Part shown: one piece after another, positions 918 to 5,245 of the stretch
Position numbering within the stretch: position 1 is the stretch's first letter
How the letters are laid out: each line of letters opens with the position of its first letter
Assembly: GCA_018208355.1 (NCBI GenBank)
Contig: CP062796.1
Span: 621,217 to 685,216, forward strand
From: Candidatus Fermentithermobacillus carboniphilus
GTDB lineage: Bacteria > Bacillota > Sulfobacillia > Fermentithermobacillales > Fermentithermobacillaceae
Reading direction: 5' to 3'
DNA: 64,000 bases
The notes under the pieces: generated by a model
Told to the model about the DNA's origin: nothing
Databases searched by the model: none
What the model saw: the letters and a program-made list of their open reading frames with translations, nothing else
Translations under genes and position numbers: made by a program

Positions 918-1267
918 CTACCGCGGAAGTATTCTATAAACCCCACAGACAGTCCTCTCGAAAAACCACCCCGGGGGAGTATCCCGTATTTTGCCCACTC
1001 GCAGGCGAGGGCCCTTGTGACGGTAACCACTCCCCCTTTGGAGGCGTGGTAGACACTGGCACCGGATGTATACGGCATGCCCTCCGCTTTGGTTGATCTG
1101 GTCGGCAGTTTCCTGGTTCTTCTCACTCACGCCGGTGATGCCACTTTGGCGCCAAACCGGGAAAGTCCGATACATATCGCTTTGGCTATGCCTCGCGAAC
1201 CGCCGGTGACGATGGCTACCTTTCCGCTGAGATCAAACAGTTCAGGTCCAACTTCCAACGAAACCAT
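918..1267 (-). pseudogene. Decayed short-chain dehydrogenase/reductase (SDR) gene remnant
   Basis: Three SDR pieces lie in different frames: an N-terminal Rossmann motif MVSLEVGPELFDLSGKVAIVTGGSRGIAKAI (start 1267); then ...EKNQETADQINQSGGHAVYIRC; then the catalytic YxxxK block SVYHASKGGVVTVTRALACEWAKYGI. Together they span only ~350 nt, whereas an SDR needs ~750 nt. This implies a frameshift near 1140 and an internal deletion junction near 1050-1066. Confidence 0.45.
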
Positions 1268-1459
1268 CTAACCAAGGTCCCCTTTCCATCTGAGTTTGGG
1301 CCAGCGTGCCGGGGAACTACGGCAGTCATCCGCCAACTCCCGGCCCAGACGCTCTAGGATAGCCTTTATGGGGACTCTCCAAATCATGCGGGACGGCACA
1401 CATAGATGAAGCGATAGACTTTCGGACGGTGAAATTGGGACTCTTCTCGCCCGAAGGCC

Positions 1460-3388
1460 TCATGACTTGGGACTCAAGAGAGAACATTCTCTGTGCAGCT
1501 CTCTCACGTCCCAGTGTCTTTTCTCGTAGATCTGGTAGGCCCTGTTCCTGAAAGGTCGGGAGGCATGGAAGTCCCCTATTCCCTCCAGGTAGTTTGAAAG
1601 CCACAGGGCTCCGCAGGCAAGATCTCTCTCAGCCCCTTCTCGCTGAAAGAGGTCTATAGCTCTTTTGCCGTAGTCTATTACCTCTTTGTGCCTGTTCTGT
1701 TTAGACAGGATACAGGCGTTCAAGAGGAAGACCCAGCCTGTCTCAACGTGCGATTTACCGTTCAGGACAGGTGCAGCTTTCTGAAGAAGGGACATGGCTG
1801 CTTCAATCTTTCCTTCGCGTAAATACACTTTGGCCAGCTCAACGGCAGCGTAAGCCCAGTGAGTTGAAAGGTTCTTCTGCTCGTAGATGGCCTGGGCTTT
1901 CAGGAGATATTCGCGGGCCATAGCTGTGTCGTCTTCCCTGTACATCAACATTCCGAGGTTGTGCCAGGCAACCGCCAGGTCGTCCAGTTCCTCGGGAGGG
2001 CACTTCTCGACACAGGAGACGAAGTGAGTTTTCGAAGCCTTCCAGTTGCGTCGCTGGAACTCAATGAGACCGAGCATGAGGTCGATGTGGGATTTGACTT
2101 TCCTCGCTTCAGCGAATTCCTTGTCTGAAGACCATCGCTTGGCCTCTTTCAGGGCATTTTCTGCCTGGTCTAGTTTACCCGCACCGAAATAAGCTGAAGC
2201 CAGGTTTATCAAGAGCTTCCCATAGGTCGGGAGGGGTTCAGGGGTCAAAGAGAGGCCTTTCTTATACCACTGGACGGCTCTGGCATAGTCGTGTTCTGAA
2301 TAAAGATTACCCATGGCAAGACACACCTGTCCCGCCAGGTCGGACAAACCTGCGTCTTCCACGCTTTTCAAGGCATACGCCCCGATTTCTCCCGCGCCAT
2401 TGAGATTGCCGGCTCTTCCCAGACAGCGAATTGCTTCGCACACACACGCGATCCTCTCCTTCGGGTTGTCAAGAGCCGCGTAGACCACGGATGCTTCATG
2501 CCATACTTTGGCCGCGTTGTCCCACAGATTCAGCGATTCAAAAGAACGGGCGCTTTTTCGGAAATGCAAAAGCGCATCCTCGCTCATGCCCGCCTTCACC
2601 ATCTTCTGGGCAAGATCCATCTCGAAGAAAGGACCCTGGTCAGGCAAGGCTTCCATGGCCCTGGAGAGTCTACCGTGGAGCAGTCTTATTTTTTCATAGG
2701 AAAAGATAGAAGAAATCGAAGGGGAAAGGTCTGCCTTCAGATTTATCCTCTTCCCGCCGACATCATCCAACAAGTTCAAAAGCCCTCTTCTTTCAAGATT
2801 TTCAGTCAGCCTGGAGAATTCGTCCGCGGGCATTTCGGTCATGGCCATCACCCAGTCAAGCCTGGCATTGTTCCCGGCCAGGGAGAAAAGGGCGAGAAGT
2901 TCTCTCTCTGCGGGCAAAAGAGACAAGAGGGCCTCCTGAGTAGCCGCCGTCTGCCGCTGGTCCTCGGCTTCGAACTCGTTCAAAAGACGCGAGAGAAAGT
3001 AGGACACCGAGCGTACATCCTGGTCGGTAAGCATGCTCAAAGCCATGTAAAACGAGGTCCTCCGGTTCTCAAGATTCGCCTTTTTGATGAAAAGGTCGAT
3101 TAGGCCCTTGATTTCGAGTCTATGGGGATCCTCGTACAGCGAAATGTCACTTAGGTTTTCTTCTGTCAAACCGTCTTCAGCGAAAAGCCGGGCGATCGGC
3201 ACGTTGAAGAAAGAGGCAATACGGTCCTTATACTCGTCGCTGAGATTTCGCCTGGCACCATTCAACACCAGCGAGAGATATGTATCGGACAGCCCTATCC
3301 TTTCAGCAAGGTCTTTGACCCTGACGTTCCTTTGCGCCATTAGGGTTTTCACGTTCTTGGCAAAGACTTCCAGGCTCGACAACACCAT
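1460..3388 (-). CDS. Transcriptional regulator: N-terminal XRE-family HTH followed by a large TPR-repeat domain (RNPP-like architecture), ~642 aa
   Basis: The N-terminus MVLSSLEVFAKNVKTLMAQRNVRVKDLAERIGLSDTYLSLVLNGARRNLS is a typical HTH_XRE. The C-terminal half carries multiple TPR-like units (e.g. AWHNLGMLMYREDDTAMAREYLLKAQAIYEQ; WAYAAVELAKVYLREGKIEAAMSLL). The track ORF starts at 3484 but would read through the terminator hairpin, so the start is placed at the ATG at 3388. Confidence 0.7.
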   Translation of the reverse strand: MVLSSLEVFAKNVKTLMAQRNVRVKDLAERIGLSDTYLSLVLNGARRNLSDEYKDRIASFFNVPIARLFAEDGLTEENLSDISLYEDPHRLEIKGLIDLFIKKANLENRRTSFYMALSMLTDQDVRSVSYFLSRLLNEFEAEDQRQTAATQEALLSLLPAERELLALFSLAGNNARLDWVMAMTEMPADEFSRLTENLERRGLLNLLDDVGGKRINLKADLSPSISSIFSYEKIRLLHGRLSRAMEALPDQGPFFEMDLAQKMVKAGMSEDALLHFRKSARSFESLNLWDNAAKVWHEASVVYAALDNPKERIACVCEAIRCLGRAGNLNGAGEIGAYALKSVEDAGLSDLAGQVCLAMGNLYSEHDYARAVQWYKKGLSLTPEPLPTYGKLLINLASAYFGAGKLDQAENALKEAKRWSSDKEFAEARKVKSHIDLMLGLIEFQRRNWKASKTHFVSCVEKCPPEELDDLAVAWHNLGMLMYREDDTAMAREYLLKAQAIYEQKNLSTHWAYAAVELAKVYLREGKIEAAMSLLQKAAPVLNGKSHVETGWVFLLNACILSKQNRHKEVIDYGKRAIDLFQREGAERDLACGALWLSNYLEGIGDFHASRPFRNRAYQIYEKRHWDVRELHRECSLLSPKS

Positions 3389-3430
3389 CACCCGCCTAAA
3401 CTCTAGCCTAACACCGCAGCTCAGAGAGTG

Positions 3431-3466
3431 TAAAGAAAAAGAAGCACCGGGAAACACTTCCCGGTG
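3431..3466 (-). terminator. Rho-independent terminator/attenuator between the peptide gene and the regulator gene
   Basis: Perfect 9-bp GC-rich stem CACCGGGAA-acac-TTCCCGGTG (3445-3466) followed on the minus strand by CUUCUUUUUCUUUA (3444-3431). Confidence 0.5.
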
Positions 3467-3493
3467 TACCGGTCCCTTGCCCACTTTGCCGAC

Positions 3494-3733
3494 CTAGACG
3501 ATGATGATGCTGTTGTTCGCGCCCGGCGGGATTGGGATGGGGATCCCAGGGCCATCATCGCACGTCGTGATGATGATATTGTTGCTACCCGGCGGGATCG
3601 GAATCGGGATTCCGGGACCATCATCGCAGGTGGTTACCGGACGAGCCTTCGGACCGGATATCCCCAGAACCGAGGCGAGCCCCAGGACCACCGCGAGGGT
3701 ACCCAACACCAGCTTGTAGAATGTCCTCTTCAT
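3494..3733 (-). CDS. Small secreted peptide precursor (79 aa) with signal peptide and two tandem 22-23-aa repeats; candidate signalling pro-peptide
   Basis: Product: MKRTFYKLVLGTLAVVLGLASVLGISGPKARPV-[TTCDDGPGIPIPIPPGSNNIII]-[TTCDDGPGIPIPIPPGANNSIII]-V. GGAGG lies 7 nt upstream of the ATG at 3733. It has a hydrophobic signal peptide and a terminator right after the stop. The two repeats differ at 10 synonymous third positions, with only 1 amino-acid change plus a 1-codon indel. Confidence 0.55.
   Translation of the reverse strand: MKRTFYKLVLGTLAVVLGLASVLGISGPKARPVTTCDDGPGIPIPIPPGSNNIIITTCDDGPGIPIPIPPGANNSIIIV
3500..3634. repeat. Tandem ~66/69-nt direct duplication inside the peptide gene
   Basis: Units at 3569-3634 and 3500-3568, aligned codon by codon from the sequence. 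Confidence 0.8.
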
Positions 3734-3790
3734 TACGGAACCTCCGTCCATGAGATCGAGTGGAATGTTCCGCTTCGCTGGGACCCTCTA

Positions 3791-3820
3791 TCTATATGGG
3801 CCTTTTGCCGGCAGTTACAA
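3791..3820 (-). promoter_or_regulatory. Putative sigma-A promoter of the peptide gene (TTGTAA-N18-TATAGA)
   Basis: Hexamers read on the minus strand (-35 at 3820-3815, -10 at 3796-3791), ~55 nt upstream of the start codon. Confidence 0.3.
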
Positions 3821-3825
3821 AAAGT

Positions 3826-3849
3826 GAGGCAGCAACCCGGTGCTGCCTC
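3826..3849 (-). terminator. Hairpin (GAGGCAGCA-acccgg-TGCTGCCTC) followed on the minus strand by ACUUUUUGUAA; an upstream insulator/terminator ahead of the peptide promoter
   Basis: Perfect 9-bp inverted repeat. The U-rich tract overlaps the proposed -35. Confidence 0.3.
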
Positions 3850-3980
3850 CAAAAACGGTGGATGCCGGCTGAGTACTCGGCCTCAAGTTGGGTCAACCTT
3901 TGTTTCTACTCCGAACCTCGGAGTTCCTTTAACAGCTTATTTAATTCCTGTTAGTTGATGACAATTGCGAGTTTTGTTTA

Positions 3981-4179
3981 TCTGTCAGAAAACTACGATT
4001 CGTGTTTCACCGTGATTCGATAATTACGGTTTTCTGTCAGTTAATCTACACGGGCGATTTCAAGGTGGCGATTCGAAAATCGGGCCAAAAATATTCTGTG
4101 AGCTAAGATCGACCTTCTGGGCAGAGCCTAATTCCCCGCTCGGTACCGTCGGTTGGACTTTGTGTGCTATTCTGACAGA
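3981..4179. promoter_or_regulatory. Three copies of a 9-bp palindrome TCTGWCAGA (3981-3989, 4033-4041, 4171-4179); candidate operator sites in the divergent intergenic region
   Basis: Exact motif occurrences read from the sequence. GATTCG also recurs three times between the first two boxes. The nearest HTH proteins are the HTH-TPR regulator and the small XRE ORF at 4196. Confidence 0.3.
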
Positions 4180-4195
4180 GGGCGATCTTTAGAGC

Positions 4196-4363
4196 CTGAG
4201 GAAGCAACTTATTAAACTACGTGAAAAGAATGGGTTGAACCGTGAGGAATTCGTCAAGAAACTCGGCCTTTGCGGAGACTTGGATGGATGCGAAGAGGAG
4301 GTACGAAAAGGAATTTGGGCAAAAGAAAAACGATTGAGAAGTACGGAGGAAGAGCATGGGTAA
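4196..4363 (+). CDS. Small XRE-type HTH protein (~55 aa) overlapping the NYN gene start; no canonical start codon (possible CTG at 4196)
   Basis: The frame is open from the TAG at 4190-4192 to the TAA at 4361-4363. It encodes LRKQLIKLREKNGLNREEFVKKLGLCGDLDGCEEEVRKGIWAKEKRLRSTEEEHG, which resembles the HTH_XRE core (L..I..LRe..GLsqeEla.klG). Its stop overlaps the NYN ATG (cATGGGTAA). AGAGGG lies 14 nt before the CTG. Confidence 0.35.
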   Translation: MRKQLIKLREKNGLNREEFVKKLGLCGDLDGCEEEVRKGIWAKEKRLRSTEEEHG

Positions 4364-4847
4364 CGTCGCAATTCTGCTTGATAGCGGGTATCTGAACAAT
4401 GTTCTTAAGAAGTATTACGGAGAAACCCGCTTGGATTACCGTGAATTCGCAGATTGGGTGTGTGATAAGGGTAGTCTCTTCCAGGTTTATTATTATGACT
4501 GCTTGCCTTACCAATCCGCCAATCCGACCCCTGAAGAAGCGCAAATGATATCGAAGAAACAGAAGTTTCTTCAAAGCCTGAGGAAGATAGACAGATTTAC
4601 TGTACGGTTGGGGCGTCTGGAGTACCGTGGTCATACAGATGACGGCAAGCCCATCTTTCAGCAAAAGAGAATTGATCTTCAAATCGGGCTAGATGTCGCA
4701 TCTCTCGTCTTCAATCAAAGGATAGACACTATTGCTATCGTTTCTGGTGACAGCGACTTAATACCGGCCATCGAACTTGCAAAGAATAACGGCATCATTA
4801 TTCGCTTAGTCCACGGCCCAAAACCCACGTACCATCAAGATTTGTAG
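4356..4847 (+). CDS. NYN-domain (LabA-like / PIN-like) predicted ribonuclease, 163 aa
   Basis: It begins with the block VAILLDSGYLN and carries SGDSDLIPAIE, matching NYN acidic motifs. Its start is strongly coupled to the upstream HTH ORF. Local GC is visibly lower than in the flanking genes. Confidence 0.65.
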   Translation: MGNVAILLDSGYLNNVLKKYYGETRLDYREFADWVCDKGSLFQVYYYDCLPYQSANPTPEEAQMISKKQKFLQSLRKIDRFTVRLGRLEYRGHTDDGKPIFQQKRIDLQIGLDVASLVFNQRIDTIAIVSGDSDLIPAIELAKNNGIIIRLVHGPKPTYHQDL

Positions 4848-5157: not shown

Positions 5158-5245
5158 TGGTGCCGGGGGCGGGAGTCGAACCCGCACGCGGGGCTACCGC
5201 ACGCGATTTTGAGTCGCGCATGACTGCCAGTTCCATCACCCCGGC
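5158..5245 (-). tRNA. tRNA-Leu (anticodon CAA), 88 nt with a long variable arm and encoded CCA
   Basis: Reverse complement: GCCGGGGTGATGGAACTGGCAGTCATGCGCGACTCAAAATCGCGTGCGGTAGCCCCGCGTGCGGGTTCGACTCCCGCCCCCGGCACCA. It has a 7-bp acceptor stem, an anticodon stem CGCGA/TCGCG with loop CUCAAAA, and a GGTTCGACTCC T-arm. Confidence 0.85.

Follow-up and report, generated by a model that had tools for sequence, protein, structure and literature searches.

A predicted signal–receptor cassette with a proline-rich repeat peptide and a large HTH–TPR regulator in Candidatus Fermentithermobacillus carboniphilus

Near one end of a 64,000-nucleotide stretch of the Candidatus Fermentithermobacillus carboniphilus genome (contig CP062796.1, positions 621,217 to 685,216; below, the window), a short gene for a repetitive proline-rich (Pro-rich) peptide precedes a gene for a large regulator with a helix-turn-helix (HTH) domain and tetratricopeptide repeats (TPRs). 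Do these two genes encode a signal and its receptor? An earlier note, made from the sequence alone, had proposed a peptide-signalling cassette of the RNPP type. We assign a probability of about 0.6 to the prediction that the locus is a chromosomal, lineage-restricted, RRNPP-like signal–receptor cassette, ranging over Ca. Fermentithermobacillia and related thermophilic anaerobic Bacillota. Of the earlier proposal, the conserved pair, the TPR regulator and the selection on the peptide have stood, while the proposed ligand has not; the regulator also departs from known receptors in length and in sequence. The prediction starts from the gene anatomy, the conservation of the pair, the selection on the peptide cores, the conserved terminators and leader, and the fold of the regulator, all of which were observed in this analysis.

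The peptide gene and its pairing with the regulator gene

All features of the cassette lie on the minus strand of the window (Table 1). The 79-codon open reading frame (ORF) with two near-identical units that the earlier note had described is indeed present, and its product is 100% identical to QUL99059.1 of Ca. F. carboniphilus, annotated as "hypothetical protein". The gene also has a Shine–Dalgarno (SD) sequence of its own, as had been claimed. The ORF could be extended to an in-frame ATG at 3751, but this start is unlikely, since the extension would take in the invariant SD. The DNA of the two units is 79% identical, and our codon-by-codon comparison gave exactly the earlier count of ten synonymous differences, one amino acid change (S/A), and one inserted serine codon. 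A spurious ORF in repeated DNA is ruled out, as the differences between the units are nearly all synonymous in this frame.

Related loci were taken from genome and metagenome collections (31 loci) and from a look-up of an encoding contig (one locus). Pairing was counted in 20 distinct loci with a full-length regulator homologue (42–59% identity) and enough upstream DNA. All 20 carry a Pro-rich peptide gene on the same strand, 70–380 nt upstream of the regulator homologue. The encoded peptides have a basic N-terminus, 17–27 uncharged residues, and one to four tandem Pro-rich units, for example, ADGPAYPPPIVPPLPPGANNIIIV, repeated four times in L007, and GPVLPLPLPPVEDDPPDPPDVDGFPGYWITAG, repeated three times in L004. 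With L003, in which the peptide gene is present but runs off the end of the contig, 21 of 21 regulator loci are paired. Starting from the peptides instead, a profile search retrieved 27 proteins among 5.8 billion. For seven of these 27, the longest contig is of the same size as that of a regulator match, and each of the four peptide homologues that were checked lies directly upstream of a gene for a 639–645-aa HTH–TPR protein or a truncated one. Co-occurrence of peptide and regulator in related genomes, set beforehand as a test, thus held in both directions (21/21 and 4/4), and homologues of the repeat peptide occur beyond this genome, with 20 other distinct loci sharing the arrangement. Ca. 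F. carboniphilus itself belongs to the class Ca. Fermentithermobacillia of Bacillota. Since the genes on either side vary from clade to clade (NYN and FxsA in the window, the cdaA-cdaR-glmS operon in others), the cassette is a conserved unit and an autonomous module.

Within the 13 multi-unit genes, the cores of the units differ by 135 synonymous and 2 non-synonymous codon changes, although this count is partly circular, as the core boundaries were set at the identical stretch. The whole-unit counts are unbiased and yield, for example, 16 synonymous versus 3 non-synonymous differences in 31 codons. Synonymously diverged codons make up 11 of 16 core codons in L004, 11 of 17 in L007, and 9 of 16 in the window. 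Judging by these codon differences, strong purifying selection acts on the peptide in this frame, and the synonymous excess bears out the earlier claim of selection on the peptide itself. It is in the tails of the units (such as NNIIIV and NSITG) that non-synonymous changes cluster. The last unit has another tail than the internal ones, and many orthologues (for example, L001, L002, L011 and L013) lack the tail or carry a different one. The part kept identical between units is the Pro-rich core, DGPGIPIPIPPG and its equivalents. Between genomes, in turn, the cores vary, with variants such as PPLPPG, PPFPPD, PPWPDE, PPLEPPD, PPMEPP, QWPP and others. This pattern, the same within a gene and different between genomes, agrees with a ligand that is matched to its cognate receptor, and would be expected of receptor-specific pherotypes.

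As the cores are protein-identical within genes while the tails vary, the comparison points to the 15–25-aa Pro-rich core, and not the hydrophobic C-terminus, as the candidate recognised element. The peptides that the earlier note had suggested as ligands (NNSIIIV, SIIIV, and NNIII) fall in the least conserved part, which is missing or different in many orthologues. The metagenome-assembled genome DUUV01 carries two cassettes with different cores, AGGPLYPPPIVPPLEPP and DGPAYPRPIVPPMEPP, in L012 and L017 (contigs DUUV01000052 and DUUV01000023), as would be expected for orthogonal pherotypes; a binning error is an alternative explanation. In L006 (positions 4621-4700) and at the same positions of L021, an in-frame TAG replaces the Gln codon that starts the third unit (GGP*LPPPLPPVEDDPPKAN...). 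These are two independent assemblies with the same stop; hence, unless the stop is read through, the number of units also changes by nonsense mutation.

By a heuristic check, the peptide in the window has features compatible with export, with a charge of +3 in the n-region and an h-region of 20 uncharged residues. The same holds for 20 of 20 family peptides, where an n-region of +2 or +3 and an uncharged h-region of 17–27 residues are followed by an acidic stretch with 14–34% Pro. An uncleaved membrane anchor, as an alternative to a Sec signal peptide, would have the same heuristic features. The peptide might then act as a membrane tether or a secretion sensor: the uncleaved anchor or the unexported precursor would offer its Pro-rich repeats to the TPRs, at the membrane or in the cytoplasm, and sequester the regulator much as an anti-sigma factor would, with no signalling outside the cell. 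The length of the h-regions does suit a transmembrane helix, several identical units could hold several regulator molecules, and no import of a 20–30-aa peptide would be required. Nevertheless, we consider this arrangement quite improbable. With Lys and Arg at the extreme N-terminus and an acidic stretch behind the helix, the predicted orientation is N-in/C-out, which puts the repeats outside, away from the cytoplasmic HTH protein, and the small residues that follow the h-region (e.g. AHA-V, ARA-V, GSA-L) resemble signal-peptidase sites.

Other functions of an exported peptide were rejected. A lipoprotein does not fit, as the VVAC-like lipobox is confined to one clade, with F, L or nothing at this position elsewhere. 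Proline-rich antimicrobial peptides do not fit either, since the exported parts carry a net charge of 0 to -14, acidic to neutral, and are not Arg-rich. A precursor of a ribosomally synthesised and post-translationally modified peptide was rejected as well: no modifying enzymes (radical SAM, YcaO, LanM, P450 etc.) and no dedicated transporter or protease were found beside the cassette, either in the window or in related loci, and conservation does not extend to the flanks.

Under the signal–receptor reading, we infer as follows how the peptide is exported, processed, imported and bound, which DNA is targeted, and how the promoter and the terminators act. The small gene would yield a Sec-exported pro-peptide, whose exported part carries one to four tandem units of 22–31 aa (two in the window), each with a Pro-rich core (here TTCDDGPGIPIPIPPG). 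The units would be freed by extracellular proteolysis and re-imported, and the extended, polyproline-like core would seat in the concave groove of the TPR superhelix of about ten repeats, altering DNA binding by the N-terminal XRE-type HTH. The likeliest target is the cassette's own ~400-bp upstream region, which would create feedback. A SigH-like promoter would tie expression to the stationary phase, a terminator in the leader (T1) would gate the peptide gene, and a partial terminator between the genes (T2) would hold the regulator far below the peptide in abundance.

Several points weigh against this reading. At 640 aa, the regulator is outside the length range of RRNPP receptors, and its similarity to the solved ones is weak and local. 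Known mature RRNPP peptides are far shorter than the conserved unit of 15–25 aa, import of such a long peptide is postulated, and no Opp genes are found among the 28 ORFs of the window that were annotated. The core counts are partly circular, as explained above, and the evidence for the cassette consists of sequence comparisons and a structural model. Finally, a regulator that does no more than control a secreted structural peptide would be expected to lie next to its target gene as well.

The last point leads to an explanation with a regulator and a target only, the target being a secreted Pro-rich peptide of the cell envelope or the cell exterior (for example, wall-associated, adhesive or on the spore surface), with the TPRs sensing something else. 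A dedicated regulator and its target would be adjacent and co-conserved just as a receptor and its ligand are; the units are long and polyproline-like, unlike the known pheromones of 5–10 aa; and the annotated genes of the window include no peptide importer. Still, the exported part is just 35–100 aa and has no LPXTG motif, conserved lipobox or wall-binding domain, and there is no other conserved neighbour to supply a ligand or a target. The identity of cores within a genome, their divergence between genomes, and the two cassettes of DUUV01 fit receptor-matched specificity better, and peptide-binding TPRs, that of NprR–NprX among them, are the nearest structural relatives of the modelled TPR fold. 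We consider the regulator–target explanation, the main rival, unlikely.

The regulator and its relation to known receptors

The peptide gene ends 111 nt upstream of the annotated TTG start of the regulator, whose product is annotated as "tetratricopeptide repeat protein" (QUL99058.1). The earlier description of a ~640-aa protein with an N-terminal XRE-type HTH and C-terminal TPRs agrees with Pfam matches to HTH_3 (E 1.2e-6, 28.9 bits versus the cut-off of 23), TPR_12 (E 6.6e-19), TPR_2 (1.2e-16), and further TPR families, and with the structural model. Matches to HTH_31 and HTH_26 are at or below the Pfam cut-off, SinR is among the PDB sequence matches of the HTH, and a faint Pfam match to MarR_2 belongs to the evidence for the winged-helix-like domain. 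The AlphaFold2 model, built from an alignment of homologues (A1), is confident, with the mean predicted local distance difference test score of 86.8 and values around 90 in the TPR part. It comprises an HTH of five helices (residues 1-66), a disordered linker (75-85), a helical segment (86-153), the winged-helix-like domain (157-215), and about ten TPRs (229-634). The regulator is thus modelled as a predicted peptide-binding TPR superhelix joined to a DNA-binding domain; it is of the same general type as NprR and PlcR, which are smaller and lack the extra domain. Its invariant residues include W372-Y373, N393, R444-K448 and Y481-D484. Generic TPR proteins rank first in a Foldseek search with the model, and its TPR domain is structurally similar to those of solved RRNPP receptors.

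About 26 homologues of the regulator were found, with identity of 42–59% and lengths of 635–657 aa. An exhaustive profile search of 1.84 billion representatives gave just 24 proteins at E <= 1e-30, so this is a small family restricted to its lineage. Many ~1000-aa proteins have an interior stretch that matches profile positions 147-617, and there are weak profile matches to AfsR, NsdA, and TPR_MalT; this suggests that the winged helix and the TPRs form a module akin to STAND-type sensors. Similar to the STAND/MalT/AfsR TPR sensors (PDB 1HZ4, 6MFV, 8JKE), the regulator combines a winged helix with TPRs at profile positions ~147-617. Unlike them, it has no NTPase: scans with Pfam and NCBIfam found no P-loop NTPase (NB-ARC, NACHT or AAA), the domain that precedes the winged helix in STAND regulators, and residues 86-153 are helical only. 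It also carries an N-terminal XRE-type HTH in place of a C-terminal LuxR or SARP domain.

The signature used by RRNPP_detector is a small Sec-exported pro-peptide, encoded by an adjacent gene, and a TPR receptor of 250–500 aa; validated RRNPP receptors have 285–473 aa, and the pro-peptide gene encodes 10–100 aa (PMC10075063). The cassette agrees with this signature in the small adjacent pro-peptide gene (21/21 and 4/4) and in the TPRs of the receptor, and has heuristic support for export, but it disagrees in the length of the receptor, 640 aa with homologues of 635–657 aa. It also differs in homology, for which RRNPP_detector demands E <= 1e-5, at least 20% identity, and at least 60% mutual coverage. 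In a profile search of PDB, the matches to receptors fall short in coverage: Rap (6T3H) matches with E 1.4e-7 over ~80 residues, NprR with E 1.3e-3 over ~100 residues, and RapJ with E 1.8e-3. Because of the length and the sequence homology, we do not assign the regulator to any named RRNPP subfamily, although its predicted mode of action resembles theirs.

The earlier note had named three differences from the classical systems. Two of them are already documented, as a peptide gene upstream of the receptor gene is found in RRNPP(A) systems (PMC9765709), and tandemly duplicated pheromone units are found in Rap–Phr and NprX (PMC5199041, PMC11343458). The third, the unusually large regulator, remains. 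What is new here is the size of the receptor and its extra domain, the long Pro-rich unit, the strictly kept identical copies, the leader with a terminator, and the host lineage.

One comparison is with NprR–NprX of the Bacillus cereus group (PDB 4GPK), whose cytoplasmic regulator likewise has an N-terminal XRE-type HTH and a TPR array; as predicted for the cassette, this array binds a secreted and re-imported peptide encoded by the adjacent gene. NprR has ~420 aa and nine TPRs and lacks the winged-helix insert, a domain that is not present in known RRNPP receptors; nprX is downstream of nprR, and its mature peptide is a heptapeptide. By contrast, here the receptor has 640 aa, the peptide gene is upstream, beyond a terminator, and the core is Pro-rich, with 15–25 aa; the sequence similarity to NprR (E 1.3e-3) is marginal. 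Rap–Phr systems with duplicated pheromones (Phr3T, Phr105, PhrK2) have a Sec-exported pro-peptide with several copies of the unit, as is proposed here, and their duplication has been tied to the evolution of specificity (PMC11343458, PMC5199041). However, Rap proteins have no HTH and act on proteins, the Phr units have 5–6 aa, and phr is downstream of rap. Moreover, instead of diverging, the copies here are protein-identical despite heavy synonymous divergence.

The receptors of PlcR–PapR and AimR–AimP are much shorter, and their peptides are short, C-terminal, and encoded downstream; we know of no leader with a terminator in these systems. Such a terminator is present in the pheromone transcript of prgQ/prgX of the Enterococcus faecalis plasmid pCF10, where it is intrinsic and gates the downstream genes, so that control combines a peptide-binding HTH receptor with a step at the RNA level. 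The differences from the cassette are that prgQ and prgX point away from each other and are under countertranscript control, that PrgX has degenerate repeats, and that the peptides are hydrophobic 7-mers that are not exported via Sec. The TPRs of LGN/Pins with peptides of Inscuteable, NuMA or Frmpd4 (PDB 4WNG, 4A1S) are alike only in the fold and the binding mode, being eukaryotic scaffolds with no DNA-binding domain. By analogy with LGN-type TPRs, which close around extended peptides tens of residues long, such wrapping might be a plausible mode of binding for a 15–25-aa core.

Two distant relatives of the regulator have other neighbours. The 680-aa protein P0038, a full-length relative, has no upstream Pro-rich peptide (L033), and a 42-aa ORF whose N-terminus resembles a signal peptide (MKRLAYLFLIFTLFSIIALGHGNA...) lies 22 nt downstream of it (L033:4334-4462), which is the classical RRNPP order; we count this relative in support of the signal–receptor reading. 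In the case of P0040 (L034:2361-2504; the family of L018 and L019), an upstream 47-aa ORF overlaps the start of the regulator gene and encodes a peptide with a hydrophobic C-terminus and without a signal peptide. This may be an SHP-like, non-Sec variant. The P0040 regulator gene is followed by FtsX/ABC transporter genes (L034:4426-6908). Together, P0038 and P0040 hint at a wider superfamily of large HTH–TPR receptors with small neighbouring ORFs.

If the signal–receptor reading is true, it would widen the known space of receptors and peptides, and the family would be invisible to surveys like RRNPP_detector, as these filter receptors to 250–500 aa. It would also be the first signalling system proposed for Ca. 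Fermentithermobacillia, an uncultured class of thermophilic anaerobic digesters and coal-fire vents. The tandem copies, protein-identical with diverging synonymous sites, are a clean natural case of selection, and since the protein sequence of each copy is maintained, the units provide ready hypotheses about the ligand.

The conserved upstream region and the terminators

How might the pair be controlled? A non-coding region of ~400 bp 5' of the peptide gene (4162..3735 of the window, minus strand) is kept in all 20 loci, with equivalents, e.g. at L012:4225-4598 and L008:2665-3040; the earlier note had not described it. At the nucleotide level, it is conserved more strongly than the proteins. 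Its elements follow in the 5'-3' order: a conserved block, the palindromes P1 and P2, CTTCTCCCACAGGAAT-N12-nTAGAATC, a segment of ~38 nt, T1, the sequences that enclose T1, a mini-hairpin, and the SD. The block forms the 5' edge of the region, and nhmmer conservation in distant clades begins there; it could be a promoter or an operator.

Pairs of P1 and P2 are kept in 74.5% of cells versus 32–44% in slid controls, and the covariation score was reached by none of 500 shuffles. In other loci, P2 reads TGGCA-N5-TGCCA, TGCCA-N5-TGGCA or ACCCA-N5-TGGGT. If the pairing were in RNA, G-U pairs might be expected to exceed A-C mismatches; the counts are 16 versus 25 in P1, showing no G-U bias, and 7 versus 2 in P2, a weak one. 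Besides, TTTAAC-like half-sites occur three times. Given the recurring half-sites and the absence of the bias, P1 is either an RNA hairpin or a DNA operator with TTTAAC-like half-sites, the latter being at least as likely.

The promoter of the peptide gene does not seem to be of the sigma-70 type, as a scan of positions 1200-4400 produced no site, and the promoter-like hexamers of the earlier note were not recovered. Instead, AGG and GAA, the sole invariant bases of the promoter-like stretch, belong to a SigH-type motif. In Sporomusa, B. subtilis, and C. difficile, the SigH consensus is AGGA / GAAT with a spacer of 17–18 nt (PMC12456013). Judging by this sequence likeness, a SigH-like promoter would link expression of the peptide to the stationary phase or sporulation. 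Control of the SigH type is known for phr genes of B. subtilis.

The ~38-nt segment occurs once per locus and only once in the window. T1 is kept in all loci, with compensatory changes from GC to AU and from GC to CG. In addition, single-sequence folds and the alignment suggest a helix that would enclose T1; in other clades, different, clade-specific partners pair back to the invariant segment. An antiterminator, formed by pairing of a conserved UGCCC with the 5' arm of T1, was rejected, since neither the window nor the clade of L004 keeps this pairing. Known RNA families were rejected too: Rfam has no gathering-level match in the window, and the leader gave only chance-level matches (E > 2), at permissive thresholds too. 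A mobile-element or phage origin was rejected, as viral contigs lack the invariant leader motif and the neighbouring genes are housekeeping ones (pyk, pfk, dnaE, cdaA, glmS).

The strong hairpin with a U-tract that the earlier note had placed after the peptide gene corresponds to T2, whose equivalent, CCGGGA...TCCCGG with a T-run, was found in 20 of 20 loci. Because T2 is so near the start of the regulator gene, only ~20–100 nt from it, the regulator is probably expressed by read-through, and this would result in a high ratio of the peptide to the receptor. One clade (L012:4920-4945; L007, L008, L011, L014, L015, L017) has a conserved CTGGTAGAATAnTCCCAG hairpin and another TAGAAT box; the hairpin occupies the short spacer from the peptide stop codon to T2.

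Taken by its sequence features, the 5' two-thirds of the region are more likely promoter or operator DNA and a candidate binding region for the HTH regulator. We read the 3' third, with the invariant segment, T1 and the putative enclosing helix, as a transcribed leader that would gate the peptide gene. Thus, a part of the region may be an undescribed cis-regulatory RNA and a part, an array of operators and promoters; in either case, the region is a separate lead.

Could a regulatory RNA, then, be the main product? In this case, the ~400-nt region and the ORF would form a dual-function RNA like RNAIII/hld or prgQ, and the regulator would drive its transcription. Such an RNA would account for a non-coding region that out-conserves the proteins, with its ~38-nt segment, the compensatory changes in the terminator and the enclosing helices, and the leader matches no Rfam family. 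However, the very strong purifying selection on the peptide itself argues against a passenger ORF, and the 5' two-thirds, with no G-U bias and a SigH-like motif at fixed spacing, look more like promoter or operator DNA. A major role of the RNA is very unlikely as an exclusive explanation, and it is compatible with a signal–receptor cassette.

More tentatively, the signal–receptor cassette may represent a distinct signalling class, defined jointly by a long polyproline signal and a newly seen leader gate. The signal would possibly be ~15–25 residues in one to four identical copies, read by the 640-aa receptor with an XRE-type HTH and a STAND-like winged-helix/TPR module. The leader would possibly combine a SigH-type promoter, the invariant 38-nt element, and T1 within a long-range helix, and might serve as a novel attenuator or a protein-binding RNA. 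We regard this joint reading as possible but doubtful.

Coordinates and neighbouring genes

Table 1. Elements of the cassette and of its upstream region, listed in the 5'-3' order of the minus strand (window positions).
Feature	Position	Strand	Evidence and remarks
Conserved upstream block AAGGTCGATCTTAGCTCACAGAATATTTTT (consensus GTCGACTTTAACTGGTGGAATATTT)	4086..4116	-	same relative position in 20/20 loci
P1, long imperfect palindrome/hairpin, arms GATTAACTGACAGAAAAC / GTTTTCTGACAGATAAAC	3975..4046	-	reverse-strand nhmmer self-matches
P2, small palindrome/hairpin TGTCA-N5-TAACA	3950..3964	-	changes on both sides at 3/5 pairs
SigH-type promoter-like motif AGGA-N18-GAAA	3902..3930	-	GAAT in most loci; spacing fixed in 20 loci
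Nearly invariant ~38-nt segment GACCCAACTTGAGGCCGAGTACTCAGCCGGCATCCACC (consensus GCCCAAACAACGCGCGAGTGCTCAGCCGGTATCCACC)	3857..3894	-	ends with ATCCACC, anti-SD-like CCACC
T1, intrinsic terminator, GAGGCAGCACCGGGTTGCTGCCTC and U-tract	3816..3849	-	in the leader, ~80 nt 5' of the peptide start; terminator scan; narrower limits 3849..3826
3' arm TGCCGGCA	3806..3813	-	can pair with GCCGGCA at 3869-3863, enclosing T1; single-sequence folds and alignment
Shine–Dalgarno sequence GGAGGT of the peptide gene	3740..3745	-	6 nt 5' of ATG; invariant in 20/20 loci
Pro-peptide gene	3733..3494	-	79 aa; signal-peptide-like N-terminus, then two Pro-rich units
Unit 1 TTCDDGPGIPIPIPPGSNNIII	3569..3634	-	repeat and codon comparison
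Unit 2 TTCDDGPGIPIPIPPGANNSIIIV	3497..3568	-	repeat and codon comparison
T2, 9-bp terminator-like hairpin CACCGGGAAGTGTTTCCCGGTG, then U-tract CTTCTTTTTC	3435..3466	-	between the peptide and regulator genes; narrower limits 3466..3445
Regulator gene	1460..3382	-	640 aa from annotated TTG (QUL99058.1); alternative ATG at 3388 gives 642 aa
XRE-type HTH domain	3185..3367	-	residues ~6-66; Pfam HTH_3, five-helix model domain, SinR matches
Winged-helix-like domain	2738..2914	-	residues ~157-215, three helices and a beta hairpin; AlphaFold2 secondary structure
TPR superhelix, ~10 repeats	1481..2698	-	residues ~229-634

About 1 kb separates the cassette from a gene for tRNA-Leu(CAA) (5158-5245, minus strand), whose surroundings show no trace of an integrated element. 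Of the ten related loci that were scanned, six (L007, L011, L012, L013, L015, L022) have glmS ribozymes in their first ~800 nt; these are the only gathering-level Rfam matches in the related loci, and they fall in the flanks. As the ribozymes belong to a divergent cdaA-cdaR-glmM-glmS neighbourhood, the flanks of these six loci are housekeeping, unlike those of the window. Downstream of the regulator gene (1127-1267, minus strand, and 56-688), the N-terminus of a short-chain dehydrogenase-like protein (GKVAIVTGGSRGIA) is confined to a 46-aa ORF; this could be a frameshifted or mis-called gene.

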